From Candidatus Binatia bacterium (GTDB lineage: Bacteria; Desulfobacterota; Binatia; Bin18): a stretch of 64,000 bases of DNA. Positions 6,776 through 63,116 of the stretch are shown here, piece after piece. The DNA lies in NCBI GenBank assembly GCA_963664395.2, contig OY761159.2:1024001-1088000 (forward strand). Reading direction: 5' to 3'. Position 1 is the first letter of the stretch; the number at the start of each line of letters is the position of its first letter. A program made the position numbers and the translations under genes. The notes under the pieces are model-generated. The model was not told where the DNA came from. It did no database searches and saw nothing but the letters and a program-made list of their open reading frames with translations.

Positions 6776-6793
6776 CGAATATGTCTGGTCAGT

Positions 6794-12377: not shown

Positions 12378-12408
12378 ACCCTGACCTCCTTTTTCCGCTG
12401 TCCTCCCT

Positions 12409-12443
12409 TTTTGCCCTGGAGAAGCGTTTTGTGTCAAACCCCT
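12409..12443 (-). promoter_or_regulatory. Conserved promoter-like motif (TTGACA-N17-GCAAAA)
   Basis: GGGGTTTGACACA.AAC.CT.C...GGCAAAA is shared with 14468-14502 at identical spacing. Confidence 0.55.
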
Positions 12444-12456
12444 CCAACGTTCAGAC

Positions 12457-12491
12457 AAAAAAGGGTCGCCCACAGGGGCGACCCTTTTTTT
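12457..12491. terminator. Intrinsic terminator (bidirectional shape)
   Basis: A6-GGGTCGCCC-loop-GGGCGACCC-T7. Confidence 0.85.
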
Positions 12492-12515
12492 CGTTTCCTC
12501 AGGCGCAAGAGCCAA

Positions 12516-14438: not shown

Positions 14439-14467
14439 AAGTGCACTCCCTCCTTATCTCCTCATTC

Positions 14468-14502
14468 TTTTGCCGCGTGGCAGTGTTCTGTGTCAAACCC
14501 CC
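14468..14502 (-). promoter_or_regulatory. Conserved promoter-like motif (TTGACA-N17-GCAAAA)
   Basis: Matches 12409-12443. Confidence 0.55.
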
Positions 14503-14555
14503 GTGTCTCTCGCCGGGCTCTTCCGAGAGACATTCTACCCTTCCCGAAGACATAT

Positions 14556-14585
14556 AAAAAAGGGCGGCCGTGGGGCCACCCTTTT
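14556..14585. terminator. Intrinsic terminator
   Basis: A6-GGGCGGCC-loop-GGCCACCC-T4; T-tract on the minus strand downstream of copy 2. Confidence 0.7.
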
Positions 14586-14604
14586 CACCAGACAAGAGCG
14601 CGCG

Positions 14605-16515: not shown

Positions 16516-16550
16516 AACACTCCCCCCTGTTCTGTGCTGAAAGAATATAG

Positions 16551-18473
16551 CTATTCTTCATCGACCGAAAAGGCCAGCAGAGCGTTGCCCGGCATGCCGC
16601 CCCAATAACCGTAGCCGGAATTCACATACAGCATGCCGTCAACAATAGTCGGGCCAGGGCCGTCGAACGATCCCCCTCGGGTCTGTATTCCATTCGTACT
16701 CTCGTATTCCTGGTCGGCATTATACTCCCAAACCACCGCGCCGTCCGCGCTTGAGTAGGCGCGCAAATGACCATCGACAGAACCGGAAAAGACAACGCCG
16801 GGGATCACCGACACGGCCGCGGACTGGGCCGGGCTGCACTGGGCGCGGCCATTACAGCCCGGTGGCGGTGTATGCCATTTGCGCTCACCCGTCTCAATGT
16901 CATACGCAAACATCCCGCCGCCGACACTCCCGTTGAGGCTGGTCGTCCAGCCCAAGTCTTTATCTTGGTGGGTCTCCACGCCGATATCGGACAAGGCCAC
17001 ATAGATGGTCCGGGCATCGGCGGCCGGCCCCCACTGGATGCCGCCGATCAGGCCGCCCTTGCCGAGCCGCTGCTGCCAGAGAATTTCTCCATCCCGGTCC
17101 GGGTCCACGGCGTGGAGGACGCCGGATTTCTGCCCGGCCAGGAGTACCCGCCTGCCGCTGGGCAGCTTGACCAGAATCGATGAAGAACCAAAGTCCAAGT
17201 CCGGCCCTCTGGCCTCGGGACAGTTTGAGTCATCATCGGTCTCACACCCGATATTCCAGGCGTCGTTAGGCGTGAACTGCTGCGACCATAAGAACTCGCC
17301 CGTTCTCAGATCAAACGCCACGATGGCATCGCTGGTGAGCGAAGCCGGGTCGGAATAGTTATCACCGGTGGTGACATACAGCCGGCCGCGTTCCAGGTCG
17401 AGGGTGGGAGAAGACCAGACCGAGGCGCCTGAGGGCCCCCACAACTGGACGCCCTTTTTGTTTTTCCGGACCGGCGCGGCCGGCTCCGGAATCGTATAGG
17501 TCCTCCAGACCATCTTGCCATTCACCGGATTCATGGCCACCAGCGTGCCCCGAAAGGTACAGCATTCATAATCGGCATCCGCGCCGGCCGCTTCTTCCAG
17601 GGCCGTCAGGGGCACGTAGAGTCGATTGCCGTGCAGTTTGGGCGTGCCGGTGATGCGCGCCATGGGATGGTCGTCAATCCGGGTGCGCCATAACTCTGCG
17701 CCCGTTCGGGCGTCCAGGGCGTAGACCGTAGCTTCAGAGTCGCCGAAATAGACCACATGGCGGGCCGGGTCGGTTCCCGGCAGTTTCCCGACGACCAGGG
17801 TTGACCGAACGCCCGCCCTGGGTTTCATCGACCAGTACAGGCAGCCGGTCTTGGCATCGATCGAATAGATCCGACCTTTCATGGTTCCGACAAAGACCCG
17901 GTTGCCGACAACGGTCGGCTGGGAGGTCTGGTAGTCCATCGGCAGGCCAAACACCCATTTGACTTTCAGCTTGGAGACCTGCGCCGTGCTGACCCCGGCC
18001 TGTTCCGCGGGCTGAAAGCGGCTGTTCACGGCATCCACGCCCCAGCCATTCCACTGCGGAGCGTCGTCTGCGACCACGAATTCGCCTGGGGCATCGGCGC
18101 AAAAACCCGCCACCGTTTCATCGGTCGCCGCTTCCGGTTTGAGCTTCTTGGCGCTGACCCATTCGGAGATGGCGCGGCGCTCTTCGTTGGTCCGCAGCAC
18201 CCCCTGGAATTTCATTTTGCCCAGCTCCAACGAGTGCAGCACAAACTCGGCCGGCAGGCGGCGGAGAATGTCGAGCTGCGCCGCCCGGGTTGATTGTCCG
18301 GCGTGACATTTCGCGCAGTGCTGCTCGTATAAGGCCCGACCATCGGGCTGCTGCCCCGTTGGGGCAGCAGCCCAACTTGGGGAGAAGAGAAAACCGGTCA
18401 GCCCTATGGCCAGGACGGTTGCCCAACGGATTTTCCACCAGTGCGTACGGGTCGTACTCCAGTCGCGTGTCAT
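16551..18473 (-). CDS. Quinohemoprotein PQQ-dependent dehydrogenase (PVA-DH-like), copy 1
   Basis: Signal peptide, CAKCH, YECCTFRG, PQQ repeats. RBS AAGGAGG. Confidence 0.88.
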   Translation of the reverse strand: MTRDWSTTRTHWWKIRWATVLAIGLTGFLFSPSWAAAPTGQQPDGRALYEQHCAKCHAGQSTRAAQLDILRRLPAEFVLHSLELGKMKFQGVLRTNEERRAISEWVSAKKLKPEAATDETVAGFCADAPGEFVVADDAPQWNGWGVDAVNSRFQPAEQAGVSTAQVSKLKVKWVFGLPMDYQTSQPTVVGNRVFVGTMKGRIYSIDAKTGCLYWSMKPRAGVRSTLVVGKLPGTDPARHVVYFGDSEATVYALDARTGAELWRTRIDDHPMARITGTPKLHGNRLYVPLTALEEAAGADADYECCTFRGTLVAMNPVNGKMVWRTYTIPEPAAPVRKNKKGVQLWGPSGASVWSSPTLDLERGRLYVTTGDNYSDPASLTSDAIVAFDLRTGEFLWSQQFTPNDAWNIGCETDDDSNCPEARGPDLDFGSSSILVKLPSGRRVLLAGQKSGVLHAVDPDRDGEILWQQRLGKGGLIGGIQWGPAADARTIYVALSDIGVETHQDKDLGWTTSLNGSVGGGMFAYDIETGERKWHTPPPGCNGRAQCSPAQSAAVSVIPGVVFSGSVDGHLRAYSSADGAVVWEYNADQEYESTNGIQTRGGSFDGPGPTIVDGMLYVNSGYGYWGGMPGNALLAFSVDEE

Positions 18474-29057: not shown

Positions 29058-29564
29058 TTGGGTATGGATACGACGCAGCCAGACTATTACTACCGCGATT
29101 TCCCCTCTCAGGTCCTGCCGGCTCGGACCCCTTTTACTCGTGTCGGACGAGGGGATGCGGGACAGTTGTTTATTTATGTATCAAATCGCCTCCAACGCTG
29201 GAGTGTCTTACTCGCTAAGGATCGGGTGGACCACATCTATCCGGAAGCACGCAAGCAGATTCCGCCAGGGTTCGCTCATATTTGGTTGTTGGAAAAACGC
29301 TACAGTACGCGCCCGGTCGGTTTCCGGACAAAACATCCCCCGCCGCTGCACCAGCCCGATCAAGGCGACCGCACCCCAGTCACCGGGTTGGGCGAGTCAT
29401 TCGTACTCTTAGCTGAACCGTCTCAAGCTCCTGGTGTGCAAGGTGACGTCCTGTCGTACCACTTGCAGGAAGGGGCCGCTATCGAAGCGGCTGAGGAGTA
29501 CACAAAGCGGCAGCGGCGGCGTGCAGTCGTGGGTTTGCTGGTGTGGGATGATTATTGGTTCTAG
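29058..29564 (+). CDS. Hypothetical protein
   Basis: Fills the gap between the GNAT gene and the ureD stop; no recognisable family. Confidence 0.5.
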   Translation: MGMDTTQPDYYYRDFPSQVLPARTPFTRVGRGDAGQLFIYVSNRLQRWSVLLAKDRVDHIYPEARKQIPPGFAHIWLLEKRYSTRPVGFRTKHPPPLHQPDQGDRTPVTGLGESFVLLAEPSQAPGVQGDVLSYHLQEGAAIEAAEEYTKRQRRRAVVGLLVWDDYWF

Positions 29565-29566
29565 CT

Positions 29567-30460
29567 CTACAACCAGCCTGATTTGCGGCGGCTTGCCGGT
29601 TCCACACCGGTCAGACACAACCGCACCGCGCTCCAGGCCGCATGAAATGCGTTGCGCAAAGCAACCGCGTCAACGGCGAGCACTCGCAGCCAGGCGCCCG
29701 CATTGTGAGGAAGGGCCGACGCGCCGGCATAGATGTCGGGAATAGGACCGAGCGCCGTTCGTAAGGTCGTCACCAACTCCCCGGCATCATGATCCGACAC
29801 AACCCAGAGCGTCCCTTGCGTCCGGTAGCGCCGCAAGGCCGGTGGCAGACTAGCAACAAACTCGTGTCCGGCAATCTCGAAGCGGTCAATACACAGGCGC
29901 TGACCGTCTGGCCGCTGGACCACTGTTTCATTGAAAAACGAAGCAAACGGACGGGCTAAAGATTCCGGGGATTCCGGGTCGTGCAGGCCAAAGGCATCGC
30001 CGCTGATGGCTGTTGCGCCTTCTTCGACAGTGATGTGGACACAAGAGCGGAAGCGCGCTTGTGGAAATAATGCGAGCGGGTCGGGCAGATACTCAACAAA
30101 ACTGCCTTTCCCCGCCTGGATGGAAACATGCTGCACCGCAGCCCTGCCCTCCTGCATCGAATGGACAACGGTTGCCCCTTGGGTTGTCAGATGGACGCAC
30201 GCCCCGTCCGCAACCGAAAAATCGAGCGCCAAACGATCCTTTTCATACACCCCGCCGGAGATGGATTGCAGGATCAGCGTCGGCATCCCAGGCGGAACAC
30301 GGTCAAAATAAAACGGCTGGGTAAGGGTGAAGGGATAGGTCGTAAATTGTTTGGCAATAAACGTTTGACCGGATGGGTCACGTTTGAAGCTGAGAGAGAC
30401 TTGGGGCGACGTGACGGAGAATGGCTCCGCTGAGAGCCGAGGAGAGGGATCACTACTCAT
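29567..30460 (-). CDS. ureD: Urease accessory protein UreD
   Basis: SGG....D, TTQGAT.V, EYLPDPL..F..A; cluster context. Confidence 0.8.
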   Translation of the reverse strand: MSSDPSPRLSAEPFSVTSPQVSLSFKRDPSGQTFIAKQFTTYPFTLTQPFYFDRVPPGMPTLILQSISGGVYEKDRLALDFSVADGACVHLTTQGATVVHSMQEGRAAVQHVSIQAGKGSFVEYLPDPLALFPQARFRSCVHITVEEGATAISGDAFGLHDPESPESLARPFASFFNETVVQRPDGQRLCIDRFEIAGHEFVASLPPALRRYRTQGTLWVVSDHDAGELVTTLRTALGPIPDIYAGASALPHNAGAWLRVLAVDAVALRNAFHAAWSAVRLCLTGVEPASRRKSGWL

Positions 30461-50242: not shown

Positions 50243-51250
50243 ATGCGTCTAGGCCTTACCCTGACAGGCGACCAGCTGACAATGGAAGATATCGTACGTT
50301 TTGCCTGTCAGGCTGAGGGGGCAGGGTTTGATTCGGTGTGGGTGACCGAGGCCTGGCGTGAGGCTTTCGTTCCCCTCACTGCTATCGCCATGCAGACAGA
50401 ACGGGTACGCATTGGCACGGCCATCGCCCTGACTATGGCGCGCAGTCCCGTTCTTATGGAGCTCGCGGCAGCGGCTGTGGATGAAATTGCCAAGGGCCGC
50501 CTTGTTCTTGGCATTGGCCCTGGCCCCAAGGCGTGGAACGAAGACTGGCACGGAGTACGGTTCTACCCCCCGGCCGCGTATGTCCGCGAGTACGCAGAAA
50601 TACTGCGCCTGATGTGGACGGCTCACTCTGGAAAGAGCATAGACTACCAGGGCAAGTATATTCAGATTCGTAAGTATCAACGCTTTTACCGCCCCTACCG
50701 AGATCAGATCCCCATCTACTTTGGGGCGGTCATGCCCAAATTCCTGCGGGTCACCGGAGCTGTGGCTGACGGCCTGTGTGTTGCCGCCTGTAATACTCCA
50801 CGCTACATCGCCGATGTCGCGCGCCGCTATGTTGCCGAGGGGATGCAAGAAAGCCAGCGAGAGGCGGACACAGTGGGCTGCATGAGTTTGGTCATCTGTG
50901 CCGTTGATAAGGATAGGGAAAAAGCCAGACACAGAACAAAGCAACAGATTGCCTTTTACACCACCTTTCCCTACTACGATATTGTGCTGGATCAGCACGA
51001 TCTCGCCGAGGAAAAAACGCGGATTCGTGAGGCCTGGGCGCGGAATGACACCGCAGGGATGGTTGCCGGTGTCAGCGAGCAGATGGTGGACCTCATCTCT
51101 ATTGCCGGCACGCCACAGGAATGTCGGCAGGCCCTCTCCCGCTACGATGACGTGGTCGATGAGGTGTCTCTCTATTCGCCCAGTTTTGGGCTCAGCCGTG
51201 AGGAGATTCTCACAAATCACGAGGCTATCCTGGCAGCCTTTGGTCGCTAA
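50243..51250 (+). CDS. LLM-class flavin/F420-dependent oxidoreductase
   Basis: AE.AGFDSVW..E, IGT.IA...RSP, GRL.LG.G, G.VADG. Confidence 0.85.
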   Translation: MRLGLTLTGDQLTMEDIVRFACQAEGAGFDSVWVTEAWREAFVPLTAIAMQTERVRIGTAIALTMARSPVLMELAAAAVDEIAKGRLVLGIGPGPKAWNEDWHGVRFYPPAAYVREYAEILRLMWTAHSGKSIDYQGKYIQIRKYQRFYRPYRDQIPIYFGAVMPKFLRVTGAVADGLCVAACNTPRYIADVARRYVAEGMQESQREADTVGCMSLVICAVDKDREKARHRTKQQIAFYTTFPYYDIVLDQHDLAEEKTRIREAWARNDTAGMVAGVSEQMVDLISIAGTPQECRQALSRYDDVVDEVSLYSPSFGLSREEILTNHEAILAAFGR

Positions 51251-51854: not shown

Positions 51855-52036
51855 GGCATTCCTCCTGTCTTAATGGGTTGCCCTACGGGCAGCCTGGTTA
51901 TGGCAGTACCAGAGCAAACTCTGAGGTGGCGTGTCAACGAGCAGAACGCAATGAGTTCTCCGCAGCTCTTGACGCAATTGATTTGCACAATCGATTTGAA
52001 AGATGCAGAAGGGCTGTGAGCGAGGGAGTGCCCCGC

Positions 52037-55000
52037 TCACTCCACATCCGTAATCACAAAATTCTGACTATTCTGTTGCCATTCCAGCGTGACCATCTCG
52101 CCCAGCATGGGAAAGTCCTCCACCACACATTCCCCCTCGGCGCCCCGCAGGAATTCGTGTCCCACGGTCGTGACCCACACCGTGGCCCGGCCTAACTCGA
52201 TGTCATCCACCCACGCTACCACCGGATGCTCGCCATCGCCCAACAGATTCCAGTTGAACAACAACCCAAACCCATTATCCACGTCTCCACACGCCCTCAG
52301 CGTGTCCCGCCGCTCCGTCCCATACCCCGCCTCCTGCCGCCCGAGGTGCCCAATCTCGATCTCCACCCGCTCCGCTGTACACACCCAGCCCGACAGCACC
52401 CCCACCCCACTCTGAAACGAGTTTACTCCCGGATTCTCCAGATACCCCGTCACGGTGGCAGACCTACCCCGAGTGGCCCCCACTAGGGGCCTCCCGCCCG
52501 CAATCACAAAGTTCTGCGTGTTCTGCTGCCACACCAATGTCACCGTCTCGCCCATCCTCGGGAAGTTCTCTACCTCACAGGTCCCGGCCACGTTCCGCAG
52601 AAACTCTACCCCCAGGGTCGTGACGGTGACGGTGGCACGGCTGAGTTCGACGTCATCCACGAGCGCCACGACTTCATGCTCCCCATCCTCCAACAGGTTC
52701 CAGTTGAATAACAATCCAAAGCCGTTATCGGTGTCGTCGCAGACGCCGGCGGTGTCCCGTCGCTCGGTGCCATAGGCCGCGACTTGCGGCGTGAAGGCAC
52801 CAATTTCGATCTCGACCCGGTTCGCCTCACATACCCAGCCCGAGAGCACCCCCACACCACTTTGGAAGGAATCGGCGCCCGGATTCTCCAGGTAGCCCAC
52901 CAGTAAACGCGTCTCCAACGCATAGTCCCCGGTCCGACTGCCATTCCCCTCCACGGCCACCACGACCGGCCCCGCCGCCACTCGGGTGCTCAGCCGAAAG
53001 TTCTGCCGCTCCCCGCCAGTATCCGCGCTCGCTAGTTCCTCGCCGTCCTGCCAGATTGTCCCCACGGTATCGGTCGAGCCAGTCGTCTCGACCACTAACA
53101 CCCCGGCCTGCGGCAGGCTGAATTGGAAATAATCGATATCGTCCGCCGTGTTGATCTGCCCGGCGGTCAAGGACGCCCAGGGGGTGATGCTGCCCAGCCG
53201 GACGCGGGTCGCTTGGGCGGGGGTATTGCCATGCAGGTCCCGGCGATCCTCCCCGCCACCGCCTGGTGGCGGTGGTGGCGGTGGCCTTCTTGCGGTCACC
53301 GTGACCGAGAAGGTCCGCGTCGTGGTCAGGCGGCCGGGATCGGTCGCCCGCACCGTCACCATGACCGTGAGACTCGGTCCCGCCGGTGCCAGCGTCAGCT
53401 GCGACCCGGCCAACGTCACCGCCGGGTCGGCGGGGCGCAACTGCATCGTGTAGGTCAGTGTATCGTCGTCGTTCGGATCGTCGAAGACATTATTCAGATC
53501 GATCGTCACCGGGTCGGCGCCCGACTCGAATGTCCGATCGGTCAGCGCGCTCGGCATCGTCACGGTCGGCGCTCGGTTGCGGTCTGCCACGGCGACGGCC
53601 ACCGTATTCACTGCGCCGGGTGCCATCACGATACCGGCGCCGGAATCACGATCAACGCCTGTCTCCTCAATGTCCAGGACCGCGGTCCCGGACGTCATTG
53701 CCGTGCGCAGTTCGGCCGGCGTGACCTTGGCCGGGCCGCCGGCCGCTTCCAGCATCAAGGCCGCAATCGCCGCCGCGTGCGGCGCCGCCGCCGAGGTACC
53801 CCTGAACGTCGAAAACCTGGGCGTCGAGGTCGAGACGTCGTCGGCCGCGGCCAGGTCCGGCTTCTTCAGCACCGCCGTGTTCGGCGTACCATCGGCTTCA
53901 AAGAACATCTGCCGCGGCCCGTCCGAGCTGAACGTCTCGACCGACTCCGTGCCGTTGAAGGCACGGTCCAAGCCGGCCGCGCTGACCGCCGCCACCCCCA
54001 CCGCATCCTGCGAGGCCGGATGGCCGAAGGTCTGACCGACCGTCGTGATCGCCAACCCGCCTCGCGCGTAGTTGAGACGCAGATAGCGATCCGCCGCACC
54101 CGCGTTCTTGACAATGACGAGGCGAGTCCCGACGCGATCGTTGGCGCACGAACCGCTGATGAACTCGATGGGGTCCTGGTTGCCGTCCTGTGTGTTCGTC
54201 GAGCTGGCAAGGACGTTGTTATCCGCATCAATGAGAAACAGGTCGTAGTCGTTGGCCGATTTTCCCCACGGGTCGGTCCACTGCAAGACGATGGGGAGGA
54301 AGCTGTCCTTCACGATTGCATTCCGGGTCACGTCATTGTCGGGGTCGAGGTCGAAGTCGTGGTAGACGGCACCCGTGGGGACGCCGTTCAGGATCAGCTC
54401 CGGCCCGGCGACGAAGTCGCCCTCCCAGACGCCGGACGTGCTGTCGTTCAGGTTGCCGCCGTTGCCGGCCGCCGAGAAGTAGTAGCAGCCGTCGGCAACC
54501 ACGCTGCTGACCGCCTGGGCGATGACGCCGTCCTGGAAGGCCGGTGCCAGCAGATACCCGATGTCGTCGACGATAACGTTGGCGCCGGCCGCGCAGAGAT
54601 CCTCGATGTTCTGCGCCATCTGCGCCGCCCCGTTGATGCCGGTCGCGAAAAACAACTCGGCGCCCGGCGCAAGATCGTGCACGATCTCTAACATGGCCGT
54701 CCCCTCGGTTCCCTTGCTCCTCCGGTTGCAGGACAACGAAATCGCACCGCCCGCCTGCCCGGGCAGGACCGTGACCCCGGCCGGCACCTCGCCCGTCGCC
54801 TGCTGCGCGGCGAGCGCATCCACGCCATCCGAGAGCACCCCGACGCTGATGCCCGTGCCGTCCACACCGTGCGTACTGCGCGCCACGTTCGCCTGGTGGG
54901 CGACATCGCCCTCCCTAAGGGGAGTGTTATTGCTTACCGCCACCATTGCCTGAGCAACAGCTGAGCGCTCCAGCACCTGGTGCGTGATGGGCTGGTCGGC

Positions 55001-55477
55001 GGGCCGAATGGACTGGACGGCCTCAAGCGTGGCGAGCGGCTCCAGAGCGGAGAACGGCAGCTGCGCCCGGATGGCCCGGTATTTCGGCACGCTGCTCAGC
55101 ACCGTGCCGCCCAAATCCTGGATGCGCGCCAGCACTGCGGGCGTCACGTCCGCCCGGATGTCTACCGTGACCACCGCGTCCTCGACATCCGTGGTCGGGG
55201 CCTGCTTGTCCTTGACGCCGGCGCCCGGTGCCTGCCGGCGCGCGACGCCCTCCGACGGCTGGGCACTCCCTGTCGCGTCCAGGAGTTGGGAACTCAGCTT
55301 CCGTTGGGCCGGCGTCCGCTGCGCTTTGGCCTCCAGGATGGACGCAATCGACTGGCTGGCCGGCTGGGCACGGCTGAGATCGGCCCACACCAGGACCGCG
55401 CCGACCGCTACCACTGCCCCGAGGAGCCCCATACCACGGGCTCCTGCCCTGAGTCCTGTCATATCTGGTCGCTTCAT
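52037..55477 (-). CDS. Secreted subtilase-fold (S8/S53-like) serine protease with PPC-like domain and duplicated C-terminal module
   Basis: Signal peptide, propeptide, DGTG..VGVLSDG, EGTAMLEIVHDLAPGA, SAAGN, GTSAAAPH, cadherin/Ig-like domain, poly-Pro/Gly linker, D.HGN, two GYLENP repeats. Confidence 0.85.
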   Translation of the reverse strand: MKRPDMTGLRAGARGMGLLGAVVAVGAVLVWADLSRAQPASQSIASILEAKAQRTPAQRKLSSQLLDATGSAQPSEGVARRQAPGAGVKDKQAPTTDVEDAVVTVDIRADVTPAVLARIQDLGGTVLSSVPKYRAIRAQLPFSALEPLATLEAVQSIRPADQPITHQVLERSAVAQAMVAVSNNTPLREGDVAHQANVARSTHGVDGTGISVGVLSDGVDALAAQQATGEVPAGVTVLPGQAGGAISLSCNRRSKGTEGTAMLEIVHDLAPGAELFFATGINGAAQMAQNIEDLCAAGANVIVDDIGYLLAPAFQDGVIAQAVSSVVADGCYYFSAAGNGGNLNDSTSGVWEGDFVAGPELILNGVPTGAVYHDFDLDPDNDVTRNAIVKDSFLPIVLQWTDPWGKSANDYDLFLIDADNNVLASSTNTQDGNQDPIEFISGSCANDRVGTRLVIVKNAGAADRYLRLNYARGGLAITTVGQTFGHPASQDAVGVAAVSAAGLDRAFNGTESVETFSSDGPRQMFFEADGTPNTAVLKKPDLAAADDVSTSTPRFSTFRGTSAAAPHAAAIAALMLEAAGGPAKVTPAELRTAMTSGTAVLDIEETGVDRDSGAGIVMAPGAVNTVAVAVADRNRAPTVTMPSALTDRTFESGADPVTIDLNNVFDDPNDDDTLTYTMQLRPADPAVTLAGSQLTLAPAGPSLTVMVTVRATDPGRLTTTRTFSVTVTARRPPPPPPPGGGGEDRRDLHGNTPAQATRVRLGSITPWASLTAGQINTADDIDYFQFSLPQAGVLVVETTGSTDTVGTIWQDGEELASADTGGERQNFRLSTRVAAGPVVVAVEGNGSRTGDYALETRLLVGYLENPGADSFQSGVGVLSGWVCEANRVEIEIGAFTPQVAAYGTERRDTAGVCDDTDNGFGLLFNWNLLEDGEHEVVALVDDVELSRATVTVTTLGVEFLRNVAGTCEVENFPRMGETVTLVWQQNTQNFVIAGGRPLVGATRGRSATVTGYLENPGVNSFQSGVGVLSGWVCTAERVEIEIGHLGRQEAGYGTERRDTLRACGDVDNGFGLLFNWNLLGDGEHPVVAWVDDIELGRATVWVTTVGHEFLRGAEGECVVEDFPMLGEMVTLEWQQNSQNFVITDVE

Positions 55478-55560
55478 CCCCGCTCCACGCCTTGGAACAT
55501 ATCTCTGACTTCTCTCCAAGGCGAGACAACGGGAGAAACACGAGCGGCACGCCGGCGCGC

Positions 55561-56091
55561 TCAGTCTGTTGGGCACGAACCGCGCGTCTGCGCCTCGTCG
55601 GCGGGACGGATCGACTGAACCGCGTCGAGCGTGGCGAGCGATTCCAGGGCGGAGAGGGGCAGCCGGGCCCGGATGGCCCGGTATTGCGGGACGCTGTTCA
55701 GCACTGTGCCGCCCAAATCCCGGATGCGGGCCAGTACCGCCGGCGTCACCTCGGCCCGGATGTCGACTTTTACCCATTCGTCCGCAGCTGGCTGACCCCG
55801 CCCTGTCCGCCACGCGTCGAGCAGGTGCGAACTCAGCTTCCGCTGCGCCGCCGTCCGCTGGGCCTTCTGGATAAGCAGCGCCTCGATCTGACGCTCGGTC
55901 GTCTGCGGCAGTGTGCCTCCAGGCTGCGCTGGCGCTGACTGCGCGCGAACGGGGCCGACCCACAGCAGGGGCACGCCTACCGCCCCCAGTAGCCCCCAGG
56001 TCAGTCTGACCCATGTCCTGCGTGTTTGGGCTATTTTTCCATCCTCAATGAGAAAGTCGATACTCTCCAACAGGGAAGGCTTTGAACTCAT
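55561..56091 (-). CDS. Free-standing secreted copy of the protease propeptide
   Basis: Signal-peptide-like segment, then KAQRT.AQRKLSS.LLDA...VDIRA.VTPAVLARI.DLGGTVL.SVP.YRAIRA.LP.SALE.LATL.AVQSIRPAD, near-identical to the downstream prodomain. Confidence 0.7.
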   Translation of the reverse strand: MSSKPSLLESIDFLIEDGKIAQTRRTWVRLTWGLLGAVGVPLLWVGPVRAQSAPAQPGGTLPQTTERQIEALLIQKAQRTAAQRKLSSHLLDAWRTGRGQPAADEWVKVDIRAEVTPAVLARIRDLGGTVLNSVPQYRAIRARLPLSALESLATLDAVQSIRPADEAQTRGSCPTD

Positions 56092-56128
56092 CCGGATGAA
56101 TGTAGCGTCCTCCTGCCGGCTACCGTCC

Positions 56129-59100
56129 TTACTCCACTGCGGTGATGATAAAATTCTGACTGGTCTGCTGCCACTCTAATAGCACACTCTGCCCCAGGCG
56201 GGGGAAGTCCTCTACCACACACTCCCCCTCAGCTCCCCGTAGGAATTCGTATCCCAGGGTGGTCACTCGCACCGTGGCCCGGCCCAGTTCGACGTTATCC
56301 ACGTAGGCGATAACCGTATGCTCTCCATCCCTCAGCCGGTTCCAGTTGAATAACAACCCAAAGCCGTTGTCCGTGTCCCCACACATTTCCTCGGTGTCCG
56401 CCCGCTCCGTCCCATAGCCAGCCGCAAGCCGTTCCGTCTCGCCACTCTCGGTCCCGATTTCGATCTCCACCGCCTCCGCTTCGCATACCCAGCCCGAGAG
56501 CACGCCAATGCCACTCTGAAAGGAGTTGGGGCCCGGATTCTCCAGGTATCCTACGTCTGCCGCCCCGGCCCGGTTCTCCCCGCTCGGCGCCGCTCCGCTC
56601 GCGATCACAAAGTTCTGCTTGCTCTCCTGCCATACCAGCGTCACCGTCTCGCCCAGACTCGGGAAGTCCTCCACCTCACACTCGCCCGCGACCCCCCGCA
56701 CAAACTCCTGCCCCAGGGTTGTCACCGTGACCGTCGCCCGGTCCAGTTCGACATCATCGACCAAGGCCACAACCGTATGGGGCCCGTCGCTCAGCCGACT
56801 CCAGTTAAACAACAGCCCAAAGCCGTTGTTGGTGTCCCCACAATCTCCTTGCGTGTCCGCCCGGTCCGTCCCATAGGCCGCTACGTGGTGCTCGGTGTCA
56901 TCAATCACAAGCTCCACCGTCTCCGCTTCACACACCCAGCCCGAGAGCACCCCCACACCACTTTGGAACGAGTCCGGGCCGGGATTCTCCAGATACCCCG
57001 GCACAAAGGTGACGACTAACTCGTAAGCGCCGGTCGCTCCCCCCTGTCCCTGCACAGCCACGACGACTGTTCCGGCCTGCACGGGGGCGCCAAGCCGGAC
57101 GGCCTGCCGACTGCCCGTGGGGCCGGTCGCCACGACCGCCCCGTCTTGCCAGATCGTACCCCTGAGATTCACTCCGCCGGTGGTGTCCACAAAGACCAAC
57201 CCTCGGCCTGGGGCAGTGACGGTAAAATAATCCCGGTCTGCGGCTAGACAGATGGCTCCGGAAGTCATTGTGTCCAGGGCAATGTCAGTGGCCTGTGCAG
57301 CGCTGTTGCCGTGCACGTCCTCTGCACAGGCGGGACCGCCCCCTCTACCACCGCCCGGTCCTGGTGGCGGTGGCGGCGGTGGCGGTGGCGGCAGGGGACG
57401 AGTCAACTCCGCAATCGTCACGACCGTAGTAGCGGGGTCACCCACCTCCATCCTGGCCGGCAGCGGGCTGCCGAACCCGAATTCTGCCAACTCGCCGGCG
57501 TCATCTGCTACAGCGTCGTCATGGACCGTGACGGTAAAGGTCTTCTCAAGCGGCTCGTCGCGCGAGAAGATCACGACGGGTACCTGCGTATAGCCATCTT
57601 CATACGGGACCACCACATAGCCGTCCGGGACCACCGCATAGTCGTCATACGTTATGCCGTCTCGGTTCGTTGCCGTCAGCAGAATCTTCACCCCGCGTTC
57701 CGGGTCCTTGTCCAGCTTCACGGTGACCGTCGCCGTCCTGCCCTCGTAGCGAACGGCGCCGAAGGACACGACGACACTTGGTGGCCTCACCAACCGGTCG
57801 GTAATATCCGGCGCGTTGTTACCGACCAAGTCCCGGACGGGCGTCGCCGCCATTCCGTCCGGCGCCGTGTAACTCAACCTGACCCCGTCGCTCGCTTCGA
57901 CCGGAGTGAGGAGTGTCAACGTGACCGTACTGTCGGCTATCGAAACGTCTGTGACCTCGACCGCCACACCCTCGACAGTCACCGCAAACGCATCGGATGC
58001 CGGTACCGAACTCTCATCCAGCATTTCGTCATAGCGCACCGTCAGCGTCGCGCCGTTGACTAGAAGAAAATCATCGTTGCCAAAATCCAAATATGGCTGG
58101 ACTCCATCCACCTTGTGGGCCTCAGTGTCCGTCAGTGCATCGAGAATCAGCAGCGCATCATGGTTGTCGCTGTCGCGGATGGTTCCGTCGTGCAGGTGCA
58201 GCGCGTCGGCGGCGATGCTCAACCCGTCGGGGGCTTCGTCCCCGACCGGCGGAACGTCGTACCCGAGGAAGCGCAGGATACCCGCAGTGAAGCGGTCGAC
58301 GCCCTCGGCTACGGCATATCTGAACACCAGGGCCGTCGTCCCCGACCCAGTCACGTATGGCGCGACTCGCTCATAGGGGCCACTGCTGTCGAACGTGAGC
58401 AAGAGGTGCGGTGTGCCCGTGACCGTTACGCTCTCGCTGAACGTCACCCTGAGCTCGATCACCTCCCCGGCGGCGTAGGTTTGTCGGGCTGCGGGCGTCG
58501 AGTTGATCTCCAGGCTGCTCACATACGGAGCGGAGGTCGTCACTGCGTGGTCGATCAACGCCGCTACGATATTGCCCGCCTTGTCCCGGATGGGACGAGT
58601 TCCCACGGTATAACTCAACATCACCTGATAACTCAACGTCACCCAGTCGGTTGGCGCCACCGCCGAAGCGAGGGTGAGCGTGACGGCACGGTCGCTTATC
58701 GAGACGGCGCTCACATCACGCCTCACGTTGTTCACCATCACCGTATAGGCGCTGGCTGGCGTCTGCGAATATTTCCAGAGCGTTTCGCTGTAGGTCAGCA
58801 CGAGGTGGGCGCCGTGCACCGCCGCCGCCCAGAGGACCGGCGTGATGCCGTCAACCCTTTTATCATACAGATCCTCATGCGCCTCGTGCGCCAGGTCTGC
58901 GTCGATGTCGGTATTGTTCTTTTTAATGCTGCCGCCGTTCAACTTGAGCGCGTTGGCGTCAATCGTAGTCTCGGGGGCTTCGTCGGTGTCCGCGACGGTG
59001 TAGCGGAAAACCAGGTCCGTCGAGGGCGGGCCGCTTTGATAGTCGGCTTGGCGGGTCATGGAACCGAGGGTCAGGGCGATTTGCGGCGTGCCGGTGACGG

Positions 59101-59329
59101 CCACCTCCTCGCTGAACGTCACGGTCACTTCGATGATGTCGTCAAGTTTATAACCATATAACCCGTCCGTGAACGCGACATTCTCGACCCTCGGCATGTC
59201 TGTCTGGCCCTCGACGGCGGGCGGGGACAGCACCGCCAGCAGCATAAATGTGACGGCGGCAAGGGACCGGTGTGAGTAACGGCACAGTGACATTATTCCG
59301 ACCACTTCGTCATCGAAGGACAGCCTCAT
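56129..59329 (-). CDS. Large exported adhesin-like protein (alternating Ig-like and SwmB-like repeats) with duplicated C-terminal module
   Basis: Signal peptide; 2x IE..VTFSE.V.VTGTP...L.FRY.V; 2x V.G..L...Y.E.L...VTLTL...LSY...RD..GN; poly-Pro; D.HGN; two GYLENP repeats. Confidence 0.8.
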   Translation of the reverse strand: MRLSFDDEVVGIMSLCRYSHRSLAAVTFMLLAVLSPPAVEGQTDMPRVENVAFTDGLYGYKLDDIIEVTVTFSEEVAVTGTPQIALTLGSMTRQADYQSGPPSTDLVFRYTVADTDEAPETTIDANALKLNGGSIKKNNTDIDADLAHEAHEDLYDKRVDGITPVLWAAAVHGAHLVLTYSETLWKYSQTPASAYTVMVNNVRRDVSAVSISDRAVTLTLASAVAPTDWVTLSYQVMLSYTVGTRPIRDKAGNIVAALIDHAVTTSAPYVSSLEINSTPAARQTYAAGEVIELRVTFSESVTVTGTPHLLLTFDSSGPYERVAPYVTGSGTTALVFRYAVAEGVDRFTAGILRFLGYDVPPVGDEAPDGLSIAADALHLHDGTIRDSDNHDALLILDALTDTEAHKVDGVQPYLDFGNDDFLLVNGATLTVRYDEMLDESSVPASDAFAVTVEGVAVEVTDVSIADSTVTLTLLTPVEASDGVRLSYTAPDGMAATPVRDLVGNNAPDITDRLVRPPSVVVSFGAVRYEGRTATVTVKLDKDPERGVKILLTATNRDGITYDDYAVVPDGYVVVPYEDGYTQVPVVIFSRDEPLEKTFTVTVHDDAVADDAGELAEFGFGSPLPARMEVGDPATTVVTIAELTRPLPPPPPPPPPPGPGGGRGGGPACAEDVHGNSAAQATDIALDTMTSGAICLAADRDYFTVTAPGRGLVFVDTTGGVNLRGTIWQDGAVVATGPTGSRQAVRLGAPVQAGTVVVAVQGQGGATGAYELVVTFVPGYLENPGPDSFQSGVGVLSGWVCEAETVELVIDDTEHHVAAYGTDRADTQGDCGDTNNGFGLLFNWSRLSDGPHTVVALVDDVELDRATVTVTTLGQEFVRGVAGECEVEDFPSLGETVTLVWQESKQNFVIASGAAPSGENRAGAADVGYLENPGPNSFQSGIGVLSGWVCEAEAVEIEIGTESGETERLAAGYGTERADTEEMCGDTDNGFGLLFNWNRLRDGEHTVIAYVDNVELGRATVRVTTLGYEFLRGAEGECVVEDFPRLGQSVLLEWQQTSQNFIITAVE

Positions 59330-59406
59330 AGACCACCTCCTCCTGTACCGGCAATCATACGCGTCGTTTCCCTGGCTGATGCGTACTGTAAGTATATGTC
59401 GCAGGG

Positions 59407-59439
59407 CCTGTCCTGAGCGTGTCGCAGGGCCGGGGTGAG
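59407..59439. repeat. REP-like hybrid element
   Basis: CCTGTCCTGAGCGTGTCGCAGGGCCGGGGTGAG, matching 42271-42302. Confidence 0.55.
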
Positions 59440-59447
59440 CAGGTCCT

Positions 59448-62400
59448 CTACTCCACCTCCGTCATGACAAAATTCTGACTATTCTGTTGCCATTCCAAGG
59501 TTACCGTCTCGCCCAGCATGGGGAAGTCCTCGACCACACATTCCCCCTCCGCCCCCCGTAGAAACTCTGCCTCGGCTCCTTCCCCTACGGTTGTCACCCG
59601 CACCGTGGCCCGGCCCAGTTCCATAGCGTCCACGACGGCCACCACATCATGTTCGCCGTCCCCCAGCAAGTTCCAGTTGAACAGCAACCCAAAGCCATTG
59701 TCCGTATCGCCACACATCGACTCCGTATCGAGCCGCTCGGTGCCATACGCCGCCGGCTGCGGCTCCCCGTTCAGTTCAATGACAACCTCGGCCCCCTCAC
59801 ATACCCAGCCCGAAATCACCCCAATCCCACTCTGAAAGGAGTTCGGCCCGGGGTTCTCCAGATAGCCTACCCCGGCTCTCCCCGCCCGGTTGGTGGTGCC
59901 AGCAGGAGCCAGACCGTCCACAATCACAAAGTTCTGCTGTGTCTGTTGCCACGCCAGGGTGACCGTCTCGTCCCCGGTCGGGAAATCGGCGGCTGTACAC
60001 GTCCCCGTCACCTCCCGCAGAAACTCCGCCCCCAGCGTCGTCACCGTCACAGTCGCCCGGTCGAGTTCCACCCCATCCACGACGGCCACCACCTCATGCT
60101 CGCCCTCCCCCAGCAGGTTCCAGTTGAACAAGAGGCCAAAGCCGTTGTCCGTGTCGCCACACACCGACTCCGTATCGAGCCGAGCCGTGCCATACGCCGC
60201 CTCCTGTGGCTCCCCGTTCAACGTAATCTCTACGGCTTCGGCCGCACAGGTCCAGCCTGAAATGACGCCAATCCCACTCTGGAAGGACTCGGCTCCCGGA
60301 TTCTCCAGATACCCCGGCACGAAGGTCACTTGCAGGGTGTACGCCCCGGTTGCGCCCCCTTGGCCTTGGAGGGCGATCACCACCGACCCAGGGGCAACCC
60401 GCACACTGAGCCGGAAGTTCCGGCCGGCCCCGCCCGTGGCGGCGGTGGCTAACTCTTCCCCGGCTTGCCACACCGTGCCCACGGTGGCGGTCGGCCCACT
60501 CGTCTCGACGACCAACACCCCGGCGTGGGGCACGTCTGCGGTGAAGTAATCCACATCGGCGGCCGTGTTGAGCTGCCCCGGTACGGATGCGGTGCGGGCG
60601 GGGTCCAGGGTGACGAGGGTCGCCTGGGCCGGCGTGTTGCCGTGTTCGTCCTGGCTGGGACCGCCGCCGCCCCCGCCCGTGGTGGTGCCGCCCGTGGTGG
60701 TGCCCGTGGTGGTGCCCGTGGTGGTGCCCGTACCGGTTCCTGTCGTCGGGGTCATCGGCGCGCTGGGCCCGTAGACAAAGACCTTCCCCGCGTGGAAGTC
60801 CGCCACCCACCATGTTGTCCCGTCCGACCAGAGCGCCGTCGGGCTCAGGTTGGCGGGCGCCAGGATGCGATCCTGCTCGACTGCGGACACAATGTCGCTT
60901 GAGGATTCTACCGCTCTCGGGTTCGCGCTGTACGCGTGCAGACGGGCGTCAAGGTAGCCCGAAATCCATACGGTGCCCACGTCATTCCACCAGAACCCTC
61001 TGATAGAGGATGCGATGTCAAGCAGGTCAAGCGTTGGCAAATTCTTGACAAAGTTGTTATTCGGCGACCCGTATATCACCGCCGGGGTTGCATCCGTATC
61101 CGCATATATCCGGTAGGCCCTGAGGCCAATGGGGCTCAGGCCATCTCTTGCCAGCCAGAGCAAGCAGGTCGCGTCGGAGCCCGCGCAGGTCGTGTCCTTC
61201 CTCCCCCACAGCCCGTACCCGGCGAGAACGCTATCAATATCCTTGGCCGTGTCCCGCATACGGTCGGCCAGCGTGTAGGCGTATATTTTCCCGTCATCGT
61301 AGTCCAACACCCAGAGTGTCGTCTCGTCCGACCACAGCCCGGTCGGACGAGCGTTGGCCGTGTCCAAGGGAATGTCCTGGGCGGGAGCTCGCACGCCGCC
61401 GGGCAGCGTGTAGGCGTACACCTTCCCCCCGACTTCGCCCACGACATACAGCGTCGTCTCGTCCGCCCACAGCCCACTCGGACGAGTGTTGGCCGCGTCC
61501 AGCGTGATGACACCGTCGCTCGTTTGGGTGCCGGACGTGATACGGGCGCTCCAAGCAGTAAATGCCGGGGTCTGCGGTATGGTCACTCCGGTGTTCTGCA
61601 CCCCCAGCTCCTTGAGGTCCGGCAGGGCGGTCGGAAATATGGCGGGGAGCGGCCCGCTCAAGGCCGCATTGCTGTGGAGCTTCAGGTCAACCAGGCTGCT
61701 CAGCCCCAACGCGGGTGGAATGAAGCCGCTCAGCTTGTTGCCCTGGAGGTAGAGCTGCGTGAGGTTCCTCAGGTTCCCCAACTCGACTGGGAGGGAGCCG
61801 CGCAGCTTGTTACTCCTGAGGTCCAATTGAGTGACCTCGCCGTCCGTATTCGTTGTGACCCCGTGCCACTCACCCAGATCCGTGTCGTCGTCCAGCCAGT
61901 TATCTTTGCTCGTCCAGTTCGCCCCGCCGGTCGCAGTATAGAGCGTTGCCAGCGCCTCGCGCTCGGTACCGGTCACGGACGGCACGGACGGGATCAGGCT
62001 GATGATCTCAGTCCTTTGTCTGTTCGGGGTTCCCTCACTGACCGTGCGAACCGCATCAGAAGAGATGGAAAAGAGCACCGACCCTGCCGGTAGGTTTTGG
62101 ACCGGGTGAGGGATCGGTGTCACCTCGACGCTATAGGTCGTCCCCGAGCCCTGGAGGTCCGCTGCCTGCACCTCCCATTGGGAGGGACCACGCCCATCAG
62201 GACGACTAAATCCTAGCACGAGGATATCTTGAAGCGCGAAGCCTGCCACCGCCTCCGAGAAGGTGACCGTGACCGTGAAGGAAGGTTCCAGCCCCGCATC
62301 TTCGTCCCAGGTCAGTGTGATTTGGGGCCGCTCATCCGCCAACGGTCTGGCCGTAGCCGTAGCCGTGGCCGCAGAGCCCGCGCCCGCGCTGTTCCACGCC

Positions 62401-62801
62401 CGCACCTCAAAGGCGTACTGTGTGCCGGTGGTCAGCCCCCGCACTATCGCCGACAGCGCCCCCTCATCTGCCGTAATGGTCCAGGAGGTGGTAGACGGCA
62501 CCGTGTCGCCCGCCGCATAGCGGTATTCGTATGTGGTGATGGACGCCCCGCCGGTGTTCTCCGGCGCGGACCAGAACAGCACTGCATGCGCACCGCTCGG
62601 AAAGACCGCGAAGTTCTGCGGCGGCCCGGGGACGGTGACCGTCTGCGCCCGCGCGTCTTCCGGCGTGGCAATCCCCAGCACGGCGGCCAGCACGACGAGC
62701 GCCGCCACCGCGCCCCATCGCCGGGACGGGCGCGGTGGGTGGGGAGCACGTCCTGGAAAGAGCGAACGTCTCTGGGGGATTCTGGGCTCAGCTTGCATCA
62801 T
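59448..62801 (-). CDS. Large exported protein with FN3, Ig-like, LRR and beta-propeller-like repeats and duplicated C-terminal module
   Basis: Signal peptide; FN3 (W.AP...GG.SIT.YEYRY...YAFEVRA.N.AG); ALATLY.ATGG.NW...W.GV cap with LRR L.GSLP.ELGNL.NL..L.L.GN.LSG; GLW.DETTL.V repeats; Thr/Gly linker; two GYLENP repeats. Confidence 0.82.
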   Translation of the reverse strand: MMQAEPRIPQRRSLFPGRAPHPPRPSRRWGAVAALVVLAAVLGIATPEDARAQTVTVPGPPQNFAVFPSGAHAVLFWSAPENTGGASITTYEYRYAAGDTVPSTTSWTITADEGALSAIVRGLTTGTQYAFEVRAWNSAGAGSAATATATARPLADERPQITLTWDEDAGLEPSFTVTVTFSEAVAGFALQDILVLGFSRPDGRGPSQWEVQAADLQGSGTTYSVEVTPIPHPVQNLPAGSVLFSISSDAVRTVSEGTPNRQRTEIISLIPSVPSVTGTEREALATLYTATGGANWTSKDNWLDDDTDLGEWHGVTTNTDGEVTQLDLRSNKLRGSLPVELGNLRNLTQLYLQGNKLSGFIPPALGLSSLVDLKLHSNAALSGPLPAIFPTALPDLKELGVQNTGVTIPQTPAFTAWSARITSGTQTSDGVITLDAANTRPSGLWADETTLYVVGEVGGKVYAYTLPGGVRAPAQDIPLDTANARPTGLWSDETTLWVLDYDDGKIYAYTLADRMRDTAKDIDSVLAGYGLWGRKDTTCAGSDATCLLWLARDGLSPIGLRAYRIYADTDATPAVIYGSPNNNFVKNLPTLDLLDIASSIRGFWWNDVGTVWISGYLDARLHAYSANPRAVESSSDIVSAVEQDRILAPANLSPTALWSDGTTWWVADFHAGKVFVYGPSAPMTPTTGTGTGTTTGTTTGTTTGGTTTGGGGGGPSQDEHGNTPAQATLVTLDPARTASVPGQLNTAADVDYFTADVPHAGVLVVETSGPTATVGTVWQAGEELATAATGGAGRNFRLSVRVAPGSVVIALQGQGGATGAYTLQVTFVPGYLENPGAESFQSGIGVISGWTCAAEAVEITLNGEPQEAAYGTARLDTESVCGDTDNGFGLLFNWNLLGEGEHEVVAVVDGVELDRATVTVTTLGAEFLREVTGTCTAADFPTGDETVTLAWQQTQQNFVIVDGLAPAGTTNRAGRAGVGYLENPGPNSFQSGIGVISGWVCEGAEVVIELNGEPQPAAYGTERLDTESMCGDTDNGFGLLFNWNLLGDGEHDVVAVVDAMELGRATVRVTTVGEGAEAEFLRGAEGECVVEDFPMLGETVTLEWQQNSQNFVMTEVE
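60676..60729. repeat. 12-bp coding tandem repeat (TTTG linker)
   Basis: CCCGTGGTGGTG about four times. Confidence 0.8.
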
Positions 62802-63116
62802 TCTATTCTCTCCTCTTGTATCGGTCTCCTGTCCGGGACGCTGACGCAGCACTGGGTCGAAACCTTACTCAACCCCATCCCGCCGCGTGTGTCCCTCCCA
62901 AATGGGAGGAATCTTCACACCGCAGGCCGAGGGCGGCACACCCCTACCGGTGCACCCGCCTGGTCGGGCCGGGGGGCGGCCCGCTCAACTGGACCCGAAA
63001 AGACGTGCGCGCATGTGAGAGAACGGGGGGCGGCCCCCTATCGTTCTGTTGTCATCTGGCATTGGCCTCGAAATGAGAGCGTTTCACGTTAGTCTGTAGC
63101 CATGCCAGTACGCGCT

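Follow-up and report, generated by a model that had tools for sequence, protein, structure and literature searches.

A tandem Ig-like module shared by three otherwise unrelated exported proteins of a Candidatus Binatia bacterium appears to belong to an undescribed domain family

The window analysed here is a stretch of 64 kb from a Candidatus Binatia bacterium (GenBank assembly GCA_963664395.2, contig OY761159.2, positions 1,024,001 to 1,088,000). Three consecutive open reading frames (ORFs) in it, named genes A, B and C, lie head to tail on the minus strand and encode proteins that share one C-terminal module behind different N-terminal parts, referred to here as passengers. ORFs were read from a program-made list, and the start codons were checked for genes A to C. 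A previous inspection of the letters, made without database searches (the sequence-only reading), had described three secreted proteins with unrelated passengers and a common ending. This description stands: the passengers are mutually unrelated by Pfam (S8, SWM_repeat, and fn3 with leucine-rich repeats (LRR)), and the linker, PPC-like domain and two repeats that follow them can be aligned. The genes are as follows.

52037 to 55477, minus strand: gene A, S8 subtilase with a hydrophobic N-terminal leader and the module; 1146 aa from the ATG at 55477; Peptidase_S8 E 9.5e-9 (Pfam)
53633 to 54670, minus strand: Peptidase_S8 catalytic region of gene A, the best Pfam stretch (residues 281-626 of the translation starting at 55510)
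56129 to 59329, minus strand: gene B, SWM_repeat/Ig-like surface protein with the module; 1066 aa; SWM_repeat E 1.2e-30 (Pfam), TIGR02059 E 5e-26 (NCBIfam)
59448 to 62852, minus strand: gene C, fn3 and LRR protein with the module; longest ORF from the GTG at 62852, 1134 aa; fn3 E 1.8e-8, with LRR_1, LRR_4 and LRR_8 (Pfam)

The public gene call for gene A begins at 55432 and gives 1131 aa, and the protein P0160 is 100% identical. Upstream of the start of gene B lies GGAGGAGG. For gene C the likelier start is the ATG at 62801, which stands behind the stretch AGAGGAGAG and gives 1117 aa. Each of the three proteins has a single strongly hydrophobic segment, which is N-terminal and follows basic residues. 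Of the passenger labels given beforehand, the protease, the Ig/SwmB-like protein (as SWM_repeat) and the fn3-LRR combination are borne out by Pfam; the propeller assigned to gene C is not, Pfam finding nothing in region 60663-61565 even at E<=1. Within that region an internal tandem repeat of about 135 nt, 75% identical, lies at 61236-61501 (minus strand). The interval first delimited, 52037 to 60660, takes in only the module of gene C and ends inside that gene, leaving out its passenger.

In each protein the module has the same order: a linker (poly-Pro/poly-Gly in genes A and B, Thr/Gly in gene C), a PPC-like domain initiated by D.HGN, exactly two repeats, and then the stop. The parts were placed by alignment and with a hidden Markov model (HMM), as given for each.

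53240 to 53290, minus strand: poly-Pro/poly-Gly linker of gene A, ahead of the module
52898 to 53239, minus strand: PPC-like beta domain of gene A, DLHGN start (alignment; all-beta in residues 1-114 of the AlphaFold2 model)
52496 to 52897, minus strand: first repeat of gene A, 134 aa (alignment; HMM domain E 3e-77)
52046 to 52447, minus strand: second repeat of gene A, 134 aa, followed by the last residues and the stop (alignment and HMM)
56999 to 57319, minus strand: PPC-like domain of gene B, DVHGN start (alignment and HMM)
56597 to 56998, minus strand: first repeat of gene B, 134 aa (alignment and HMM)
56138 to 56551, minus strand: second repeat of gene B, 138 aa (alignment and HMM)
60315 to 60650, minus strand: PPC-like domain of gene C, DEHGN start (alignment and HMM)
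59916 to 60314, minus strand: first repeat of gene C, 133 aa (alignment and HMM)
59457 to 59867, minus strand: second repeat of gene C, 137 aa (alignment and HMM)

The repeats measure 133-138 aa, start with GYLENPG, and are separated within a pair by about 16 residues. Identity among the six window copies is 65-78%, with 68 invariant columns. All six are acidic (isoelectric point (pI) 4.05-4.27), with no or one lysine and three cysteines per copy. The PPC-like domain, of 107-114 aa, is 48-58% identical among its three copies, and all three proteins terminate in QNF(V/I)(I/M)T(D/A/E)VE with the stop codon next. An HMM of the six copies, run against the six-frame translation of the window, matches only those six (E 1e-77 to 2e-73, everything else E>2), and a DNA repeat finder also retrieves the six at 63-88% nucleotide identity. 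On the strength of these two results the shared module is real and far beyond chance. Promoter and terminator scans and Rfam, all run on the window, gave nothing relevant to it.

Comparison with known families leaves the repeat without a name. When the whole proteins are searched against Pfam and NCBIfam, the module is unmatched at E<=0.1, and the six single window repeats have no credible Pfam match even at E<=10. Among 149 repeat copies from related loci, none matches a Pfam Ig or carbohydrate-binding module (CBM) model at E<=0.01, and two have sub-threshold matches to CarboxypepD_reg. PDB sequences gave no match to individual copies or to profiles built from 6 or 144 of them; OspA, at E 0.19-0.39, is the best that the two profiles reach, and OspA matches at E 0.2-0.8 are noise. 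Membership in Big_7 (PF17957) can likewise be rejected, with 0/6 window repeats at E<=10, 0/149 locus copies at E<=0.01 and 1/54 alignment members matching. The only copy to pass is the divergent, truncated first copy of P0003, a protein probably from the same genome, with E 2.4e-8 and 34.9 bits (cut-off 24.1). In the ESM Atlas, the module of the homologue P0153 has as its structural neighbour a cluster of 280-aa hypothetical proteins, 11% of them with Big_7, at a template-modelling (TM) score of 0.86. Big_7 is thus kept as a remote lead only. The PF17957 literature, in the portions available, concerns chitinases and adhesins.

Models of known surface and sorting domains also fail to match. 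Neither SLH nor autotransporter beta-barrel Pfam models match the three proteins at E<=0.1. Por_Secre_tail models of the type IX secretion system (T9SS; TIGR04183 or the Pfam equivalent) match none of the three at E<=0.1 and none of the 149 related copies at E<=0.01 (Pfam). Sorting signals that combine a motif with a transmembrane helix consist of a C-terminal signature motif, a hydrophobic helix and a basic tail. The C-terminal part of all three proteins contains no hydrophobic 19-mer, hence no transmembrane helix, and with ends of the form ...T(D/A/E)VE the proteins do not carry signals of the LPXTG, PEP-CTERM or GlyGly-CTERM type. The absence of a C-terminal helix and of SLH, autotransporter and T9SS-tail domains had been read from the letters beforehand; the first is confirmed, and for the others no model matches at E<=0.1.

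Public sources label the carriers as hypothetical proteins or after the passenger, and the motif strings of the module do not occur in the literature searched. The Binatota papers deal, in the parts available, with metabolism (PMC8262859, PMC9999580). No description of the module was found in the accessible portions of the Binatota/Binatia literature, including PMC9999580, PMC8262859 and PMC9531527, and a look-up of terms in what was available of PMC8262859 and PMC9999580 found nothing on secretion or cell-surface proteins. The repeat of about 134 aa thus appears, as far as sequence comparison goes, to be an undescribed extracytoplasmic domain family, in agreement with the earlier suggestion that the module lacked a description: Pfam, NCBIfam and PDB sequences hold no match, and the family extends far beyond these three genes (2,653 representatives, below).

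The domain ahead of the repeats is weakly PPC-like in sequence. That of gene A gives 16.1 bits and E 0.022 with PPC (PF04151; gathering cut-off 25.9), those of genes B and C are unmatched, and a profile of the three matches the collagenase chain 5iku_A at E 0.0016. It shares with PPC and the collagenase collagen-binding domain a length of about 110 aa, an all-beta character, and a position behind a linker near the C-terminus of secreted proteins; it differs in lying below the Pfam cut-off and in sitting also on non-peptidase passengers. Homology between the repeat and the PPC-like domain was considered and rejected (hhalign probability 0.4%).

An AlphaFold2 model of a single repeat (the second of gene A), built on an alignment of 144 copies, has a mean predicted local distance difference test score (pLDDT) of 96.2 and a predicted TM score (pTM) of 0.83, and contains eleven strands plus a short helix at residues 47-53. 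Residues up to ~95 make up an Ig-like core, a seven-strand sandwich, and the last ~40 add three strands. One copy each in P0003 and P0376 lacks exactly this three-strand C-terminal extension. For the 400-residue module of gene A, comprising the PPC-like domain and both repeats, pLDDT is 87.5 and pTM 0.80, with low confidence only in the linker between the repeats. Foldseek against PDB gives one match at E<=1e-3 for the single repeat, a best TM score by query of 0.46 (a Thermotoga mannanase chain and a sulfite dehydrogenase), and probabilities of 0.9-1.0 to Ig-like domains; further matches include the surface glycan-binding SGBP-B, AMPK beta, a feruloyl esterase, and antibody and T-cell receptor domains. 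No PDB relative of the repeat reaches TM 0.5 in this search, and no T9SS C-terminal domain (CTD) structure is among the 50 Foldseek matches listed. The three-domain model has 278 matches at E<=1e-3, all at TM 0.12-0.21, which include tandem-Ig receptors, CtXyl5A, the Deinococcus radiodurans HPI S-layer protein and GhpA.

By its model, therefore, the repeat is predicted to be an Ig-like/E-set beta-sandwich and not a new kind of structure; it would be a new sequence family on a very common fold, with an unusual C-terminal extension. Structure prediction, proposed at the outset as a check, thus yields a confident Ig-like sandwich, yet one with no close solved relative (TM <=0.46). Big_7 and the Ig-like/E-set accessory domains of secreted bacterial enzymes have the same seven-strand Ig-like core, and the module differs from Big_7 in the ~40 residues (three strands) added after it.

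C23 is present in 144/144 copies, C53 in 143/144 and C107 in 74/144, and a C23-C53 disulfide is probable from this pattern. Polar residues that are invariant or nearly so in the 144 copies include E4, N5, Q12, R46, D48, D55, N58, N65, Q124 and Q128. A canonical calcium loop, given as Dx[DN]xDG in the available part of PMC3123361, was considered and does not fit the register of the conserved D-x-[D/N]-N-G.

Searched with a profile, 1.84 billion cluster representatives yield 2,653 proteins at E<=1e-3, of which 2,072 reach E<=1e-10 and 1,031 reach E<=1e-30. Three word-indexed searches, each scoring 8,000 candidates, find respectively 2,879 proteins, 901 short proteins (largely fragments) and, with an N-terminal-type profile, 2,632 proteins. 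In species-representative genomes, 229 stretches match two exact peptide patterns; 145 were confirmed and 80 kept, giving 77 loci. By a tally made by hand these loci fall in 23 genomes, 18 of which are labelled Binatia/Binatota, and exact patterns of this kind carry little information on more distant lineages. The other five genomes are labelled Thermodesulfobacteriota, delta proteobacterium, Deltaproteobacteria and, twice, 'Enterobacteriaceae' (co-assembly bins). The 5.0-Mb genome OZ244620.1 alone holds 20 of the 77 loci. A tblastn search of 72,556 plasmids and 50,697 phage records gave no match. Judged from these sequence counts, the repeat family is greatly expanded in Binatia/Binatota, in line with the lineage link that the sequence-only reading had supposed.

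In the 150 top-scoring representatives, a ranking that favours multi-copy proteins, two copies are present in 147, three in two and four in one. With C-terminal defined as a tail of <=10 aa and N-terminal-type as a start within 60 residues of the N-terminus, the module is C-terminal in 121 of them, N-terminal-type in 19 and internal in 10, and 63 of the 150 carry the PPC-like domain. The 88 carrier ORFs of the 77 loci, read from stop to stop, give a second sample. Two full copies occur in a C-terminal position in 42 and elsewhere in 18; one full copy is C-terminal in 16 and not in nine; the remaining three have fragments only, all C-terminal. Whether the module is always terminal and paired had been put forward as a check; by these counts it is not, as 29/150 representatives are non-C-terminal and 25/88 locus ORFs have a single full copy, some of which may be split genes.

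In all 19 N-terminal-type proteins the first repeat starts 21-58 residues in, after a hydrophobic leader that typically reads ...VWAQ and is followed by ATLENP. Since ATLENP comes directly after this leader, the mature N-terminus would be the repeat domain itself. C-terminal and N-terminal types coexist in one genome, even in adjacent genes (locus L061). P0153 and P0384 have four copies at the end. P0376 consists of a signal peptide and four repeats with nothing more and is a genuine module-only secreted protein; most other small proteins that look module-only are N-terminally truncated gene calls. The linker recurs as well, with P/G/T/S making up >=60% of the 30 aa before the module in 95 of 122 C-terminal-type relatives; the mean P/G/T/S fraction is 0.65 in these 30 aa versus 0.34 elsewhere in the protein.

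The range of passengers across the family is very wide, as had been anticipated, and by Pfam can be grouped generally into two categories. Enzymes include S8, M4 and reprolysin-like peptidases, sulfatases, arylsulfotransferases, formylglycine-generating enzyme (FGE)-sulfatase domains, GDSL lipases, glucose/sorbosone dehydrogenase and DPP-IV. Repeat and adhesion proteins include beta-helix, LRR, fn3, cadherin, Calx-beta, SWM repeats, SRCR, LDL-receptor class B propellers, CARDB and FG-GAP. Among the carriers seen, the most uniform group combines a signal peptide, a tandem repeat and a GDSL/SGNH lipase (PF00657) in ~650-690 aa, as displayed by P0397, P0404, P0407, P0410, P0411 and others, more than 20 of the 120 matches listed.

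Third codon positions are 45-62% identical between window copies, as against 65-78% for the protein. The three window modules are mutually 69-72% identical, and orthologues in other genomes with the same kind of passenger reach 84-99%: for gene A, P0161 and P0151 at 96% and P0167 at 84%; for gene B, P0166 at 95%, P0244 at 93% and P0199 at 92%; for gene C, P0195 and P0204 at 99%. In 8/8 orthologue pairs, conservation of the two repeats equals or exceeds that of the passenger (repeats versus passenger, 96 v 77, 84 v 81, 93 v 92, 92 v 82, 99 v 98, 99 v 92, 93 v 89 and 94 v 92%). Recent duplication or gene conversion as the source of the similarity was rejected on account of the third-position divergence and of orthologues being closer than co-resident copies. 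Together with repeats as conserved as their passengers, this indicates that the fusions are old and that the module is under strong purifying selection. A clean split between first and second repeats was looked for and not obtained: the tree of 294 copies splits only partly, with a clade of 70 that contains 66 second repeats and no first repeats, the other 58 second repeats lying elsewhere.

The last 118 nt of genes A and C (52039-52156 and 59450-59567) are 88% identical, and the same segment elsewhere 63-75%. This tract could be a local conversion tract or reflect unusually strong constraint on the last strands.

The surroundings of the carriers offer no evident partner. Genes adjoining A to C in the window include no secretion, sortase or envelope-polymer gene. 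When 688 non-overlapping ORFs of the 77 loci (12 kb) were clustered, no outer-membrane translocon, sortase or peptidase gene was found to recur beside carriers, a co-occurrence that the sequence-only reading had proposed to look for. Genes of the PorU/PorV/SprA type are seen neither in the 64-kb window nor among the recurrent neighbours of the 12-kb loci. Luciferase-like monooxygenases do recur (39 ORFs within 6 kb of carriers, 33/77 loci), often immediately downstream of the carrier, as in the window at 50243-51250; they are read as background because their density is similar to that in the window (2 in 64 kb). Other recurrent neighbours include amidohydrolases, alpha/beta hydrolases, CoA-transferases, short-chain dehydrogenases and amidases. 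A dedicated partner gene was thus sought and none emerges, the recurrent families being generic, metabolic and abundant in these genomes. The window also contains an Mla lipid-transport operon at 5684-9168 (plus strand; MlaE, ABC ATPase, MlaD and ABC auxiliary lipoprotein), from which the organism probably has an outer membrane and is diderm.

SLH domains, dockerins and cell-wall-binding repeats occur at either terminus, in multiples and behind Pro/Thr-rich linkers, are conserved among paralogues and are lineage-restricted, and export signals are positional. The module resembles the former group in being short, conserved, repeated, lineage-specific, found at either end and joined by Pro/Thr/Gly linkers. 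The likeness is one of architecture only, as the module is all-beta and Ig-like and has no sequence or fold relation to SLH or dockerin. By this analogy the carriers would be exported by Sec and then fold in the periplasm, and the tandem pair would be a non-catalytic binding handle, joined through a flexible Pro/Gly or Thr/Gly linker, that tethers proteases, sulfatases, lipases and LRR/fn3/cadherin-type adhesion proteins to a single shared ligand. This ligand would most likely be a component of the producer's own envelope, making the module a non-covalent surface-retention module with a logic like that of SLH or dockerin. Such a ligand is ranked first because the carriers comprise enzymes of diverse specificity as well as adhesion-type proteins that are not enzymes. 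The analysis shows the domain itself, the class of its fold, where it is distributed, the architectures it occurs in and how strongly it is conserved; Sec-dependent export, the disulfide, any binding and the identity of the ligand we infer. Domain architecture is the evidence for the envelope anchor, which is the most plausible reading, held tentatively at a little short of an even chance.

Several observations weigh against such a handle. The module is strongly acidic (pI 4.05-4.27), which is awkward for anionic envelope polymers unless cations bridge, and its conserved D-x-[D/N]-N-G loop departs from the canonical calcium motif. Among the Foldseek matches none is specific to lectins or CBMs, receptor-like and envelope genes do not recur beside the carriers in the 77 loci, and pairing is not obligatory, with a single full copy in 25/88 locus ORFs. 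The more specific version, in which the repeat is the attachment tag of a Binatota-specific surface-display system and an envelope receptor, protein or glycan, holds dozens of different enzymes and eukaryote-like adhesion proteins on the cell surface, is rather doubtful.

The pair could instead bind an external polymer, such as a sulfated glycan or a host or detritus matrix, in the manner of a CBM or lectin, and so concentrate enzymes and adhesins there. The passengers would suit this role, as they include sulfatases, arylsulfotransferases, FGE-sulfatase domains, proteases, lipases and the eukaryote-type LRR, fn3, cadherin, SRCR and LDL-receptor class B domains; glycoside-hydrolase accessory domains and SGBP-B are among the nearest folds, and the divergent P0003 copy passes Big_7 (E 2.4e-8). 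It would, however, be unusual for a substrate-specific CBM to appear in one fixed form on enzymes whose substrates differ widely and on repeat proteins that are not enzymes, CBM or Big_7 models at E<=0.01 match 0/6 window and 0/149 locus copies, and the fold match is weak (TM<0.5), so that targeting to an outside substrate is considered unlikely. More unlikely still is the sorting signal first proposed, in which a dedicated Binatota translocon or sortase-like enzyme would take the carriers through the outer membrane, possibly with cleavage and re-attachment, as in T9SS. The CTD of T9SS is a conserved beta-sandwich on unrelated Sec-exported proteins of Bacteroidota, with a strictly C-terminal position as its defining trait. 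Like it, the module is a beta-sandwich common to dozens of unrelated exported proteases, adhesins and LRR proteins of one lineage, mostly C-terminal (121/150 top representatives, 58/88 locus ORFs), with a conserved extreme end (QNFVIT-D/A/E-VE), many carriers per genome (20 loci in one) and, for the window, an organism that is probably diderm (MlaE/MlaD/auxiliary lipoprotein). Unlike the CTD, it has 134 aa, is normally a tandem pair, belongs to Binatota, matches neither TIGR04183 nor Pfam, has no PorU/PorV-like neighbour seen, and is found also at the mature N-terminus, internally and alone, with 27/88 locus ORFs not C-terminal. It directly follows the signal peptide in 19/150 representatives and is internal in 10/150, both types sharing one genome. 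Pfam and NCBIfam show no known sorting domain, no translocon, sortase or peptidase neighbour recurs in the 77 loci, and the 50 Foldseek matches listed hold no T9SS CTD. Repeats at least as conserved as passengers (8/8) are more readily explained if the module stays on the mature protein than if it is a tag that is thrown away. Variable position, a module-only secreted protein, copy numbers from one to four and evolution no faster than that of the passengers therefore all argue against a positional export signal. The least likely of the explanations is self-association, in which pairs bind each other or form a stalk, giving oligomers or a surface layer, or serve as a mere stabilising spacer. 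Tandem Ig-like arrays are common stalks, and in favour can be counted the three-domain matches to tandem-Ig receptors and the D. radiodurans HPI S-layer protein, the repeat-only P0376, and a pTM of 0.80 that suggests a defined domain arrangement. Spacer domains usually drift, whereas here polar residues are invariant in 144 copies and the module is at least as conserved as its passengers; the array matches reach a TM of only 0.12-0.21.

The undescribed sorting system of the sequence-only reading is thus not demonstrated; what takes its place is a domain family, with the anchoring idea kept as a hypothesis. The family would be new but of a familiar kind, the Ig-like accessory or anchoring modules of secreted bacterial proteins, and notable mainly for how large, how conserved and how confined to one uncultured phylum it is. 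The module marks a very large part of the exported proteome of Binatota, with at least 20 loci in one genome, and in databases it has no name. With a family model, thousands of 'hypothetical' proteins could be annotated at once and the surface and secreted set of the phylum defined, whose LRR, fn3, cadherin, SRCR and sulfatase members are candidate partners in contacts with hosts or polymers. If the anchor is real, it would represent a new receptor-tag pair and a possible display scaffold; if the surface-display version is correct, an uncultured diderm phylum would have its own functional counterpart of cohesin-dockerin or SLH-polysaccharide anchoring. If the repeat is only a stabilising Ig-like domain, its value is limited to annotation.

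Additional observations concern the region around the three genes. Directly upstream of gene A, in a different frame, lies a 176-aa ORF (55561-56091, minus strand) that is a paralogue of the leader and pro-region of gene A (57% identity over 131 aa, E 2e-36) and ends before any catalytic domain. DNA repeats 54992-55181/55594-55783 and 55274-55327/55813-55866 have copies that are 82-83% identical. From its sequence the ORF looks like what is left of the 5' part of another subtilase gene, or else like a partial tandem duplication. The three-gene block (52001-62000) has a higher G+C content, 0.61-0.675 versus 0.52-0.625 for most of the window, and a GC skew more negative than most of the window, down to -0.17. 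This shift may stem from Pro/Gly/Ala-rich coding or from a different history.

Elsewhere the window holds genes for ordinary metabolism and for upkeep of the envelope, including those for urease, amidases, luciferase-like monooxygenases, a molybdopterin dehydrogenase and a Rieske oxygenase. A 93-nt 'tRNA-Pyl' with anticodon CTA called by ARAGORN at 29530-29622 (plus strand), overlapping the end of a ureD-like ORF, is probably spurious, because Rfam finds no family in the window at gathering thresholds. Four consecutive paralogous genes for pyrroloquinoline quinone (PQQ)-dependent dehydrogenases of 636-688 aa lie at 10449-18473 (minus strand), and the last in the row (10449-12515) has a weak match to a cytochrome c domain (26.5 bits, cut-off 27). 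Alcohol and methanol oxidation is reported for Binatota in the available part of PMC8262859, and the four PQQ dehydrogenases may bear on it.

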